A DNA stretch of 62,650 nt, the filler included, from Sluysia triapertura (taxonomy: Eukaryota): NCBI GenBank assembly GCA_046118255.1. It is 4 parts of 4 records of this genome, joined end to end, with 100 filler letters (N's around TTAATTAATTAA, not from the genome) between each part and the next. Parts side by side here need not be neighbours in the genome. Positions count along the whole stretch, not along the records: positions 14,077 to 34,636 come from JBJNIA010011096.1; 3 more parts are not named here. One strand, 5' to 3'. Made by a program: the position numbers and the translations under genes. Below are positions 17,467 through 24,790 of this stretch, one piece after another; position 1 is the stretch's first letter; every line of letters starts with the position of its first letter. A model generated the notes under the pieces. That model made no database searches and was not told the DNA's origin. It worked only from the letters and a program-made list of their open reading frames with translations.

Positions 17467-18639
17467 TGTGTAGTTGGAGGAAACTTTCAAAAGTTTAATG
17501 TTTCCAATTCTCTTCTGAAAATCTGCATAGACACGTATGTTTAGAATACAAATCCAAGAAACTGATTTAACCGTATTGTAATGATAAACATACAATCTTG
17601 TACAATCTTGTACAATCTTGTAAATGATAAACATACTAGTAATGATAAACATATTGAACATAAATGCTACTTGTATAGAATCATTCGAACATATAACACA
17701 TTAATTTATTGATTAATTTTTATGAATATATAATTATTTTTGATTTAAATTTAACATTATTTTAATCTTTGAATTCGTTGGATTTTTATTTTGAAAATAT
17801 TTTATTGAAAATTTTATATTTTTGTAAGTAATTATTATTTTTGATTATTTAATTATTTAATTTTAATTATTATTTAATTGGACTAGCGTTTAGAACTAAC
17901 TTTTGAAAAAAATTATTTATTTTAATCTTTTAATTTTTAATATTTGTTTCAATTTAATTTGATCATACTTTTCTGCAATGAAATACAATTTTAATAAACA
18001 GTTTATATAAATACAAGGTTTTTAAACATTTTATAAAACTTTTGAAGATTATTCAAGGATCGCTTTCCAGCTTCAATTTCATCACGATATTCTCTATTTT
18101 TAACACTTGTTTCAAAAGCTACGTTAGTTTAATTATTTTAAGGTCGATACCTTAGCGTATCATAAGTAAAATCTGACTCAAAATCATTTTTTAAACTAAT
18201 TTCCTGATCTTATCACAGATCAAACGTAAAATATATTTAAAATCTTTATCATTAAGAAATTAACTAGTGTAGTTAATTTAGTAAAGTATATATTATTATT
18301 ACACAGTTGTGTATTTTATTTTTCTTTTGAAATAGTTTGAGAATAAATTACATTAACTCTTAATTTTATTGTATTATATAACTTATACAGCTTCAAATAT
18401 AAAATTAATAGTTTTATGATTTCAATAGCTAGAATTTACCATTTAAAGATTCCATATAAAGGAATCTACGAAAAATCACCTCATAAACCTTATTATAAAT
18501 TTTCAGATAAAATTTCATTGAGACTTTCCTTTAATTTACCAAAATCCAACGGCTGGCCCTAACTGGTAAGCCCAGTACGTTGGTGAACTCAAACTAAATT
18601 CTCGATTTATTCTGTTACTTTACTTTTACTTTTCTCACA
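17467..18639 (+). mobile_element. LTR of the family that flanks the gag-env element, in opposite orientation to that element; left boundary approximate
   Basis: Begins TG, ends TTTTCTCACA; U3-like tandem repeats (AATGATAAAC, TACAATCTTG; 17580-17655); TATA at ~18004; blocks of similarity to the reverse complements of 23770-24390, 47390-47490 and 57330-57900. Confidence 0.65.
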
Positions 18640-18999
18640 GTATCAAAATCTAGATCATCGTGGACTTCCAAACGTTTGAGTTTATTAATTAGTAAATTTT
18701 TTAAAGGTCTTTATTTACTCCACTGGAATTGGAATTGTTATTAAAATTAAGCATACTTGAAGAAAACGATTGTCTTTCGGTACTACAATTAATAATGATT
18801 TGTCTAGATTCATATCGAAGAACATTATTGTTTAATTCATAAAATTGCTTCGATATACAGTAAATTGAAATGATATTATGGACAGAGAGGTCTTAATTGA
18901 TTCTGTATTTGGGAGTGCTTGTCATAATAACGCTAAAGAGACACGAAAGTGTTTATTTTTGTTTTTAGTTAAAAAATTTCCCCAATATTTAGTAATAAA

Positions 19000-20826
19000 T
19001 GAAAATTTAAAATTTCATTCTTTCAACTACAGTTTTAACACAAGAACATTGGTAAATGGCACTAAGAGAAAACGCAGTAAAAGTTCAGTAAAATTATTTG
19101 TCGAAAAATGTCATAATATACTATTTGAGAAAATATTTGAGAAATCTTAAGAGCGATAACTTTAATTATTACACAAATACCTATTAATCCAGAAAAAGCT
19201 TGACCTATTACTAAGAAGTTTCCCCAAATTTGTTTTAAAGTATTGTGTGCTTTCTTAAAATGATCAGGTCCTATTAATAATTCAAAATTTATTTTGCCAC
19301 CTTTTTCTACTATTGCTTTATCAACTATGTCAGTAAGTACCTTTGACCTTTTAATAGGAACTAGAATGTTTTTGGTATCTGAAAATGTCAATTTTGTTTT
19401 TAATTCTGTTAAACCTATAATTTCCGGAGTTTTAACTTGGCTTCGATGTGGTAGAGATACCCAAAGATTATCATCAATTTTGTATTCTGGAGCCATAACA
19501 TTTGAGCAGTGTAACGTTTCTGGTTTAAATTTATTAGTTGGCATAATGATTCTCGTAACTGGTTCTAAATAAGTATTTTGATTTTTATATTACTGGTAAT
19601 TCATTAGTACATTCATTTTCTTGCCTTATTTACACTTCTACCTTTCTACATTTGTATGTGTATAAAACTTCACCCATTAGCCTACCAAATACTCCTTTTA
19701 ATGGAAGTAATGGTGCTACTAAATCTGGGTTAGTTATTGCTACTGCTAATTTAGTTCTTAATATTTCTTTATTTAATTGGCAATCCATAGCTATCATGGC
19801 TTGATAAACTTTTTCTAATGACATAAGTCCTAAATGATAATACAAATCAATTTTATTGTTAAAATATATATTTAGTTGTAAATTCTTTGTGTCTATTCCT
19901 TTTTTAGCTTGGAGTATTGCCTTTTCCGATAGATATATTCCTTGGTAATTTGTTTCAGTAATCTCTTGTCCGCATCTAATTACTAATTTCTTTGAAACAA
20001 ATATTAATCCATCTTCTTTGTTTGCCATTAAAATTGTCTGAGTTTCGATTTAACTAAGTCTTTTCCTTTCCGGTATATCTAAATTATCTTTATAAATTTG
20101 TTTTTATTTATTTCTTCCACAACTAATTCAGCTTCATTTTGGTACATAAATCCCGAAATTAGATTAAATTTAGTTTGTTTTAGAAATATTAATGGGCACT
20201 GCAAATTTTCCAATTCATATATTAATATAGATTCGTCAGTGTCACAACTTATTCGATCTAGACATCATAGTCCCTTCTTCTAAATTAAAACTTTCGTTAA
20301 AGGATTTTAAACTTAGTACATATGTTTCCTGAGCTACAACGGTATGGTCAATTTTCCCTTCATATTCTATTGATCTTCTTTCACAAGTACCATCAATTAG
20401 TACATTACTAACTGTTCTAACACTATAAATTATTTTCTCATTATTTTTAATTCTTAATTTGTTCTCTTTATTTAAACTTATATATCCAGTTTCAAAAGCA
20501 TGTCTACAATTATTCGGTGATATCTTAAAAGGTTTTAATATATTCGATATATCAGTGATTGAAGAATGACTGTGATGTCCGAAATACCAAATAACTACAG
20601 ATCTTTTAACTAAACATTCGCTAACCATTGTTGTAACCAAATTTCCTTCTTGATAAACATGTAATACTTTCATGTCTTTTATTTTGACTCTATTTGGTCT
20701 TGATTCAGGACAATCTTCAGTGTCCAATGAAGAAAATTTTCTTCCAATTTGGGGTGGGCTACAGTCAAAAGCTTTTATAGCATTATAAATTCCAAATAAT
20801 GCCAATAAAACAATTATAAATAACAT
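19000..20826 (-). pseudogene. Chuvirus-like viral envelope glycoprotein (endogenous, fragmented by stops and frameshifts)
   Basis: Signal peptide MLFIIVLLALFGIYNAIKA|FDC; SLDTEDCP; ECLVKRSVVIWYFGHHSHSS; NCRHAFETG; IRCG...TNY; GVFGRLMGEVLYTYKC; CTNELPV...YLEPVTRI...C...PEYKI..W; C-terminal TM IWGNFLVIGQAFSGLIGICVII. This is the motif order of Jingchuvirales-type glycoproteins as recalled, not searched. Confidence 0.8.
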
Positions 20827-23741: not shown

Positions 23742-23759
23742 TACTCACTTTGGGCACCA
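23742..23759 (-). promoter_or_regulatory. Primer binding site, tRNA-Lys(CUU)-like
   Basis: Minus strand TGGTGCCCAAAGTGAGTA vs canonical TGGCGCCCAACGTGGGGC (13/18); directly downstream of the LTR and upstream of gag. Confidence 0.7.
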
Positions 23760-23768
23760 GTTTATTCT

Positions 23769-24790
23769 ACGTGAGAAAAGTAAAGTAAATAGAATAAAAG
23801 CTTAACATAAAGTGAGTTCACCAAAGTCTCAAGATATGCTAAAACCTTTAATGCTTAATCCTTCTGGAGGTAAGCTTTATATCGTAATGCTTAAAGGAGT
23901 TGCTAAAAGCTTTGGTTCTCTAAAAATGTAAATTAATAACTGTTAATTATTAAACTGAAATGCTCTACAAATTGTTTATTATTTAAAATGTAAATTATCT
24001 TGAAGTTTATTCAACAATTTTACGTTAATTCCTTTGTATGGAATCTTTGTATCTGATTTTATGTCGCTAGAGTTAAATTCTAGCTTCTTGAAAACAATTG
24101 TGATTCTGGATTTTAAGAAATTTTAAAACTATAAAAATTAAGTGACTAAATAATTACACAAAACTTTATTATTAAATTATACAAAAAGTTGAAGATATAT
24201 AAATCGTTAATAATAACAATAATAATTTTACAAGAACTAACTGTCTTAGTTAGTTTATCAATGGATCTGCTTTATAATCCCAATAGATTTAATAAATTTT
24301 AGTCGATTTTACGTATGATATTTTATAAAAATATCAGCCTTATTATAATTAAACTAACGTGATTATGAAAACAGAGTAAAAATTGATCCAAAATGAGTAG
24401 GTATCTTCGTAAAGATTTTTTAAAAAACTTTTAAAACGTGTAACAAACAAATAAAACTTTTAAAACTTGAAACTAAAAATTTGTGAATTGTGTACTAATT
24501 ATTGGTCAGACTAAAACAAATCATTTAAAATGTTAATAATTTAAAATAATTAAAATCATCATAATCACGTTAATAAAAAAATTTTGTTTTAATTTAAAAA
24601 TTTAAAATTTTTAACACAATAAATTATTACTTTTAAATTTAAATAATTGTTTCCAATAATCCGTTATAAAAATTATAAATTTTGTAATAAATTTTCAAAT
24701 AATCAATATTATTGATAATATTACAATTAATAATATTCGTTGATATTAATCATTGATAAATACATATAACACTCATTGATATAAACAATC
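23769..24790 (-). mobile_element. 5' LTR of the gag-env element (outer end approximate)
   Basis: Adjacent to PBS; homologous to the 18090-18640 and 57330-58150 blocks. Confidence 0.7.

Follow-up and report, generated by a model that had tools for sequence, protein, structure and literature searches.

Solo LTRs and nested antisense LTR insertions have TG...CA ends, a short flanking duplication, no primer binding site (PBS) or polypurine tract, and dispersed relatives. Strand transfer in tRNA-primed reverse transcription requires direct repeats. Flatworm errantiviruses have the order GAG-ENV-POL with a gB-type env (PMC13524379), and the planarian element Burro has the order gag-CCHC, Ubi/SUMO, BCL2, env, protease, with decaying Burro fragments noted in Dugesia japonica (PMC6431247). 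Inverted repeats that are non-identical are known from DIRS-1 (PMC7192593). An env-carrying gypsy element with inverted LTRs was not described in the literature searched, which left most subscription papers outside, and the words 'inverted' and 'antisense' are absent from the eLife errantivirus paper (PMC13524379).

At the locus analysed here, in a window of 62,650 nucleotides of joined sequence from Sluysia triapertura (GCA_046118255.1), a gag-env element on the minus strand lies between two LTRs in opposite orientation, arm A beyond env and arm B before gag (Table 1). We assign a probability of about 0.8 to the reading that this is the product of two independent insertions and that the inverted layout is accidental and not a new element design. 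An accident is most likely because what survives looks like the front half of an element of known type, in decay, beside a separate, distantly related LTR that was inserted backwards.

Table 1. Features of the locus and related LTR copies, in window coordinates
Feature	Position	Strand	Remarks
Left GTAT, candidate target-site duplication	17573..17576	+	start motif chosen post hoc
Arm A, probable solo LTR	17577..18639	+	1063 bp, TGTAA...CTCACA; homologous to B, C and D; antisense to gag-env element
Conserved block with TATA-like motif in A	18446..18463	+	faces env 3' end, antisense; putative promoter
Hairpin-like block near LTR 3' end	18546..18583	+	in A, C and D; absent from B
Right GTAT, candidate target-site duplication	18640..18643	+	matches left copy exactly
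Stretch between env and arm A	18644..19050		~400 nt; relatives have linker and protease there
Broken gB-type env (Monjiviricetes/chuvirus-like fusion glycoprotein)	19050..20826	-	split by stops and frame changes into several pieces; approximate 3' end
Bcl-2-like stretch, weak	20941..21126	-	in frame, upstream of env
Ubiquitin/SUMO-like stretch, weak	21665..21913	-	within ORF 22057-21227
Broken gag	22820..23448	-	capsid-like part and zinc-knuckle relic near 22920-22830; tblastn and profile
PBS-like TGGTGCCCAAAG	23748..23759	-	sole TGGTGCCC in window
Spacer, LTR end to PBS	23760..23769	-	10 nt; 9 nt complementary to LTR 3' region
Arm B, 5' LTR of gag-env element	23770..24807	-	1038 bp, TGTAA...CTCACG; predicted 5' boundary, from TGTAA and length
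Copy D, more distant	47392..48703	-	TGTAAG...CTTACA, flanks TACA/TATA; clear homology in 3' block only
Copy C, probable solo LTR, same group	57333..58432	-	TGTAAG...CTCACG, flanks TATT/TATA

The minus-strand gag-env element lacks pol and is probably a relic

Next to arm B, the PBS-like site matches, in a comparison by eye, 10 of the 12 nt of a tRNA 3' end labelled Phe/His in supplement 1 of PMC13524379; the window contains no tRNA gene. Complementarity of the spacer to the LTR exceeds that of the other copies by little, since these reach 5-7 nt compared with 9 nt in B. The gag was detected by tblastn to the N-termini of P0006 and P0013 (E 9e-6 and 7e-8, respectively) and by a profile match at 23388-23107 (E 3e-15), and its zinc knuckle was recognised by eye, the profile match to it being not significant. 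For the ubiquitin/SUMO-like stretch, 15 of 18 profile matches were named ubiquitin (E 0.055-0.99), the Atlas placed it at 0.88-0.90 to ubiquitin/Rad60 clusters, under unnamed clusters, and Pfam gave no match. It is followed at about 21421-21395 (-) by what we take to be a GRP-type AT-hook-like motif. The Bcl-2-like stretch gave a 15-25% alignment with the equivalent region of four relatives, and among the profile matches listed 58 of 60 were Bcl-2-family chains, at E 0.017 or weaker and through one short motif only; alone, it had no Pfam match. These matches, weak but concordant, would place ubiquitin/SUMO-like and BCL2-like stretches between gag and env in the order of Burro.

The env was matched by PF24664 in three pieces (E 6e-20, 4e-17 and 5e-13). 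A HMMER search returned 71 env relatives, and a word-index homolog search with the N-terminal piece found none. An Atlas lead to vitellogenin (below 0.9, low recognition) was rejected against the Pfam result. As env is only 30-53% identical to its nearest database relatives (tblastn), the element represents a separate family. The coding region has decayed by about 3-5% (95% upper bound about 11%), and this copy of the element is dead.

Gag lies upstream of env with no pol in between, protease, RT, RNaseH and integrase were absent from the whole window by tblastn and profile searches, and neither a polypurine tract nor a near-identical direct 3' LTR of the gag-env element was found. When 15 of the 71 env relatives were scanned with Pfam, 8 displayed protease and/or RT after env and 4 of the 15 displayed RT, RNaseH and integrase, and RT or integrase preceded env in none of the 8 relatives with a long tail after env. 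A class without pol may exist, because env stood alone in the remaining 7 of the 15, most of these sequences ending in or soon after env. Because pol is absent here yet present in the closest relatives, the copy is best read, from its sequence, as a truncated relic related to the GAG-ENV-POL gB-type Ty3/gypsy errantiviruses and not as an intact member. The initial annotation, which had spoken of a gag-env unit, was right about the anatomy, but the unit is most plausibly incomplete, representing the 5' half of an element with GAG-ENV-POL order. With pol absent, the copy has no placement in an RT tree.

Like the GAG-ENV-POL 'ancient errantiviruses' of Platyhelminthes, Nematoda and Bryozoa, whose env is of HSV/gB type (Chary and Hayashi, PMC13524379), the element has env directly after the gag region, a gB-type env from the same Pfam family as polyproteins with protease, RT, RNaseH and integrase after env, and a tRNA PBS adjoining the 5' LTR; the LTR measures about 1 kb here and 864 bp in the sole flatworm element with LTR coordinates in that paper. 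By eye only, the env resembles S. mediterranea sequences in its supplement 2. Unlike the ancient errantiviruses, the present copy is broken, has no pol and has no matching 3' LTR. With the giant gypsy elements Burro/GYPSM1 of planarians (review by Arkhipova and Yushenova, PMC6431247) it would have in common the order gag-CCHC, ubiquitin/SUMO-like, BCL2-like, env, on ubiquitin and BCL2 calls that are weak. It is far more compact, gag through env taking up about 4.4 kb, and no MATH, BIR or ankyrin domain was seen. The copy is of modest value in showing the gag-ubiquitin-Bcl2-env layout in a compact and divergent form.

Arms A and B are homologous and inverted

The arms share colinear blocks in opposite orientation: ACGTTAGTTTAATTAT at 18121 (+) and 24360 (-), GCTAGAATTTA at 18428 in A and 24084 in B, AAGATTCCATA(T/C)AAAGGA at 18446 and 24047, TTGGTGAACTCA at 18580 and 23824, and TTTACTTTTCTCAC at 18625 and 23784. 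All four blocks that the initial annotation had listed were found where it placed them and, as it had also noted, a direct 3' LTR is absent, no direct-orientation copy of B being present to the left of env. The local score of A against B is 59 in inverted and 35 in direct orientation, compared with a mean of 33 and a maximum of 43 in 40 shuffles, and the arms have 27 G/C-containing 9-mers in common when inverted versus 3 when direct (background over 354 tiles: mean 2.2, maximum 11). The inverted similarity is beyond chance and the homology is real. It is weak and blocky, with 62% identity in the aligned columns of the 3' 640 nt versus about 60% in shuffles, and 65% identity between the full-length arms. 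Both arms had been described as TATA-bearing, which holds for A, where TATAAA is intact, but not for B, so that A alone has an intact TATA match, B reading TACAAA at this place. Arm A could drive antisense transcripts into env, as a by-product. The outer limits of 17467 and 24790 given earlier are replaced by those of Table 1; a start of A at 17467-17469 was rejected, as it lacks a flanking duplication and mismatches at 3 of 4 positions.

That arm A is the 3' LTR of the gag-env element itself, turned round by a subsequent inversion in which pol was removed as well, would fit its position just beyond env and its homology to B. However, with a coding decay of about 3-5%, LTRs of the same insertion are expected to be about 80-95% identical, and the 62-65% between A and B is incompatible with this; moreover, A carries a block common to C and D that B does not have, and an inversion would leave no duplication at both exact LTR ends. 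This explanation is largely refuted and scarcely tenable.

Related LTR copies in the window

Copies C and D did not figure in the initial annotation. Both start with TGTAA as A does, and their flanks match at 3 of 4 positions; the 3' block of D was found by nhmmer at 47487-47433 (E 9e-5). Local scores were 95 for A-C, 74 for B-C and 59 for A-B, with identities over the 3' 640 nt of 74%, 70% and 62%, respectively. Exact 9-mers in common numbered 27 for A-B and 19 for B-C, and since the A-B count is not below that of B-C, it is safe to claim that A, B and C are about equally distant. Arms A and B are thus no nearer to each other than to copy C, 33-39 kb off in window coordinates, and the nearest other copy of the repeat of A in the window is about 70% identical.

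Over their 5' 400 nt the copies give no clear alignment, so that TGTAA and LTR length define the 5' boundaries; as CATATT precedes TGTAA in both B and C, the LTR possibly starts slightly further out. Other start/end pairs at chance level exist for A, B and C and were set aside, as their ends miss the conserved CTCAC(A/G). A supposed fifth copy at 2.1-2.8 kb was rejected as AT-rich low complexity. With four copies in the 62-kb window, this group of related LTRs is dense, and inverted LTR pairs are likely to arise by chance in such genomes.

Arm A is probably a solo LTR

Arm A is bounded as GTAT/TGTAA...CTCACA/GTAT, an exact 4-bp duplication. The chance of such a flank match is 1.1% for a TGTAA start, 7.5% for TGT and 17% for any TG, and as the duplication is short and AT-rich and the start was selected after the data had been seen, it is modest evidence alone. 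The TG...CA termini are present, the 5' one at its predicted place, and neither a PBS downstream of A nor a purine tract upstream was found. The outer flanks of the complete A-to-B unit differ (GTAT versus AATA), so that the duplication surrounds the left LTR alone, an outcome that had been set beforehand as speaking against a single element with inverted LTRs. Its own exact 4-bp duplication, without a PBS after it or a polypurine tract before it, suggests that A is a solo LTR, probably a sister-family insertion antisense beyond env. It shares with known solo LTRs the termini, the short duplication, the lack of PBS and polypurine tract and the dispersed related copies, with no notable difference. 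This duplication, and a distance between A and B no smaller than that of either to copy C, favour the second of two options in the initial annotation, the antisense insertion of a related solo LTR beyond env.

It is unlikely that arm A is what is left of another element, on the plus strand and tail to tail with the gag-env element (its 5' or 3' LTR, the internal sequence having decayed), or that the junction is a local rearrangement or assembly join; in either case the layout would be accidental as well. This reading draws on the 400 nt between env and A, which have no assignable homology (no protease, RT or integrase match), on a 93-codon ORF on the plus strand after A (18869-19147, antisense to env), and on three N blocks in the window, the nearest at 13977-14076. 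However, no N occurs inside the A-B unit, A is neither followed by a PBS nor preceded by a purine tract, an exact duplication flanks it, and the ORF has no homologs and a length that is reached in 14% of shuffles; for these last two reasons, the ORF was also rejected as an LTR-driven accessory gene.

A DIRS-like architecture is not supported

The first option of the initial annotation, a new inverted-LTR architecture of DIRS type, is not supported. The likeness to DIRS (PMC7192593), a region with gag enclosed by inverted terminal repeats that are not identical, is superficial: a tyrosine recombinase, an RT and an internal complementary region are all missing here, a PBS and env are present, and the repeats are about 1 kb long, of LTR type and dispersed singly. 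No Pfam match to a tyrosine recombinase was obtained in 68 of the 69 ORFs of at least 40 aa between 15.9 and 25.3 kb, the one left out of the scan being antisense to a host kinase exon, and searches of the unit's interior with the outermost 60 nt of either arm gave background scores. The repeats are inverted and non-identical, and the duplication around A alone speaks against their membership in a single element.

It is very improbable that the locus is a genuine non-autonomous gag-env element without pol, carrying two inverted LTR promoters that are not identical, and that it is either mobilised in trans or retained by the host to supply dsRNA or piRNA against the family. The arms are indeed homologous, inverted, of similar length and closely framing gag-env, no pol occurs in the window, and DIRS-1 offers a precedent for non-identical inverted repeats (PMC7192593). 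Set against this, the duplication belongs to A, with none around the whole unit, A-B identity is near shuffle level outside the short blocks, gag and env are broken, and recombinase and internal complementary region are absent. By the textbook account, strand transfer in tRNA-primed reverse transcription moreover needs direct repeats. It is similarly a long shot that a flatworm errantivirus gave rise to a gag-env derivative without pol, which stably took up an LTR promoter of a sister family, facing inward, and either spreads in this form or is kept as a bidirectional dsRNA/piRNA trap against the whole GAG-ENV-POL group. Recurrence of the inverted junction in many copies would mean that LTR elements can be built or silenced in a new way, because direct repeats are considered necessary for tRNA-primed replication.

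Proposed history of the locus

Under the preferred reading of two independent insertions, a Burro-like errantivirus of the Ty3/gypsy group, with GAG-ENV-POL order, would have inserted first, on the minus strand, leaving its 5' LTR (arm B), PBS, gag, accessory stretches and env, whereas pol, polypurine tract and 3' LTR would have been lost. About 0.4 kb past env, a distantly related family with a homologous LTR would then have integrated in reverse orientation, its integrase acting in the ordinary way and leaving a 4-bp duplication, and LTR-LTR recombination may have reduced it to the solo LTR A; this order of events is the presumed one. So read, the locus matters little: the retrotransposon belongs to a known env-carrying class, the copy is truncated and decayed, and a solo LTR lies next to it.

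On the far side of arm A, an ORF at 16605-17048 found no counterpart in Pfam, PDB or the relatives; NCBIfam gave two rows, both far under the cut-off, and a single-sequence model had a pLDDT of 36. A motif search for downstream exons of the host kinase gene at 15.4 kb found none. An 84-aa piece of a host Mo25 exon had its top named identities, 76%, to a cestode and to a chytrid, so that a flatworm, planarian-like host is suggested mainly by base composition, the structure of genes and the type of element.

Three of the four LTR copies have the hairpin-like block in common. Folding of the 3' ends of all four copies gave z-scores of -0.86 to 0.16, which are not significant, and a Rfam scan of the whole window at E up to 1 yielded no match, so that no known ribozyme was recognised in the hairpin. 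The region of the block is 92% identical between A and C across 62 nt, and 12 pairs are retained in all three copies, one pair being changed on both sides.

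Inverted similarity of the arms flanking gag-env

The inverted layout of the LTR-like arms around the gag-env unit (arm A on the left, arm B on the right) is a real observation with a probably ordinary cause. All blocks named in the initial annotation are present and colinear between 18.1-18.6 kb (+) and 24.4-23.8 kb (-), and, as stated there, no direct LTR accompanies them, a direct copy of B not being found left of env. The local alignment score of A with B was 59 in inverted orientation (shuffle mean 33; direct orientation 35) and both arms have 27 G/C-containing 9-mers in common, against at most 11 in any of 354 background tiles. 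Their likeness is a chain of short blocks with 65% identity overall; within the 3' 640 nt the aligned columns are 62% identical, and shuffles reach about 60%.

Both LTRs of an element are identical when it inserts. In the unbroken pieces a stop would arise from about 6% of all single-base changes, and the tblastn pieces contain 2 stops in 571 (env) and 1 in 99 (gag). If 3-6 stops per 600-700 codons are assumed, a range set by hand, the decay since insertion amounts to about 3-5%, with an upper bound of about 11%, and therefore a true LTR pair should be roughly 80-95% identical. The identity of A and B falls short of this and they are probably not such a pair.

A DIRS-like design with inverted LTRs had also been proposed. 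DIRS elements, as outlined in passages of PMC7192593, combine non-identical inverted repeats with an internal complementary region, RT and a tyrosine recombinase. This proposal is not supported, as no tyrosine recombinase was detected among 68 ORFs, no RT was found and the outer ends of A and B do not recur inside the unit.

Features and their positions
Feature	Position	Strand	Remarks
Arm A	17577-18639	+	1063 bp
Short tandem repeats, start of A	17577-17660		TACAATCTTG x3, AATGATAAACATA x3
TATAAA retained in A	18455
Arm B	24807-23770	-	TGTAA start, 1038 bp
Half motif resembling D palindrome	24984		just outside B
Copy C, third full copy	58432-57333	-	TGTAA start, 1100 bp
Copy D, partial, near 47.4 kb	48703-47392	-	TGTAA start, 1312 bp
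Short palindromic motif (AGGTTC-N-AAGAACCT type)	47583-47766		four spaced copies within D
Hairpin-like block in A	18546-18583	+	near LTR 3' end
Hairpin-like block in C	57422-57385	-	near LTR 3' end
Hairpin-like block in D	about 47483-47444	-	near LTR 3' end
148-codon ORF	17048-16605	-	525 bp left of A
Tyrosine kinase exon, GC-rich	15412-15924	+	stops just short of DFG motif
Transposase DNA-binding domain fragment, Tc5/pogo type	36527-36835	+	PF03221, E 2e-12
Tandem repeat	39150-39498		period ~146 bp
Direct duplication	53362-53591 and 56118-56346		~230 bp, 82% identical
Gaps	13977-14076, 34637-34736, 50116-50215		identical; 44 N + 12-base AT linker + 44 N

Dispersed copies of the LTR

Local scores (B-C 74, A-C 95) and 3' identities (B-C 70%, A-C 74%) are higher for the dispersed copy C than for A with B, whereas exact 9-mer counts rank otherwise (A-C 29, A-B 27, B-C 19). 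The safe statement is therefore limited: A and B are no closer to one another than either is to a copy lying 33-39 kb off. A 62-nt block with 92% identity between A and C is also found in D and is replaced in B. The hairpin-like block, likewise missing from B, is 92% conserved (A-C) versus about 70% for the rest of the LTR and keeps 12 pairs in 3/3 copies, with one two-sided change. It gave no Rfam match and its fold energy is not unusual; possibly it is a cis-acting RNA element. Copy D has, near its inferred start, repeats similar in length to those opening arm A.

Arm A as a probable solo LTR beside a truncated element

Taken from its start to the conserved end CTCACA, arm A reads GTAT/TGTAA...CTCACA/GTAT. 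The duplication flanks A alone and has no counterpart at the outer ends of the complete A-to-B unit, which favors the other option of the initial annotation, a sister-family solo LTR lying antisense beyond env. Flanks of C and D match at 3/4 positions. At random positions (16,287), an exact 4-bp match occurred in 1.1% of cases with a TGTAA start, 7.5% with TGT and 17% with TG; as the TGTAA motif was chosen post hoc and the 5' parts of the copies have no clear alignment, the duplication is supportive, not decisive. Neither a PBS after A nor a purine tract before it was found. By these sequence features, arm A looks like a solo LTR, an unsurprising neighbor because four related LTRs lie within 62 kb.

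Arm B is the 5' LTR of a minus-strand element. Its end is followed by 10 nt and then by TGGTGCCCAAAG, the sole such site in the window, which in a by-eye comparison agrees at 10/12 positions with a primer that supplement 1 of PMC13524379 assigns to Phe/His tRNA; 9 bases of the spacer show complementarity with the 3' region of the LTR. Downstream of this PBS follow a broken gag, an acidic region, a 277-codon ORF carrying a weak ubiquitin-like stretch, a weak Bcl-2-like stretch and env, whose three Pfam-positive pieces belong to the Monjiviricetes fusion family. Protease, RT, RNaseH and integrase were found nowhere in the window, and only 1.6 kb separate arm A from the host kinase exon; therefore pol was either lost by deletion or did not integrate at this site, and the gag-env unit is best read as one half of an element.

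The 148-codon ORF lies on the element's strand and is joined by shorter frames reaching to about 17280. It exceeds the longest in any of 300 shuffles and has no Pfam, PDB or relative match. It may derive from the 3' end of the element, from another repeat or from a host exon.

In the combined account, to which we assign a probability of about 0.8, a GAG-ENV-POL gypsy element would have integrated, with subsequent loss of its 3' half, a sister-family element would have inserted in opposite orientation about 0.4 kb past env, and this insertion would have collapsed to the solo LTR A. Antisense transcription from A into env may be possible.

Relatives of the gag-env element

By the general pattern of the group, relatives of this element would have direct LTRs. 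A HMMER search yielded 71 env relatives, and a Pfam scan of 15 of them detected protease and/or RT after env in 8, RT, RNaseH and integrase together in 4, and env alone in 7. The env C-terminus is reached by 19 relatives and 8 of these extend at least 200 residues further, all with protease after env; RT or integrase precedes env in none of the 8. As the profile behind this protease count was built partly from the long-tailed relatives, the Pfam scan is the independent evidence. Two to four consecutive aspartyl-protease domains follow env in the relatives P0003, P0004, P0005, P0009 and P0050.

Errantiviruses of Platyhelminthes, Nematoda and Bryozoa with a gB-type env are described in sections of Chary and Hayashi (PMC13524379) as having the order GAG-ENV-POL, and portions of a review (PMC6431247) give the Burro order as gag-CCHC, ubiquitin/SUMO, BCL2, env, protease and mention decaying Burro fragments in Dugesia japonica. 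The portions concerned of both sources do not state LTR orientation, and the table in PMC13524379 has LTR coordinates for 1/9 flatworm elements. The gag-env unit is a new decayed representative of an already known element type.

Genomic setting

The host of the window is an intron-rich eukaryote. Judged by composition and the type of element, it would be a flatworm, probably planarian-like. GC is mostly 18-30% (AT-rich), and scattered exons encode Mo25, a tyrosine kinase, a Vts1-like domain protein, C2orf69 and saccharopine dehydrogenase. In a weakly informative search, the Mo25 exon piece had 76% identity with a cestode sequence and likewise with one from a chytrid. A motif search of the window found no later exons of the kinase gene. 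The three N gaps are an assembly artefact and no biological repeat.
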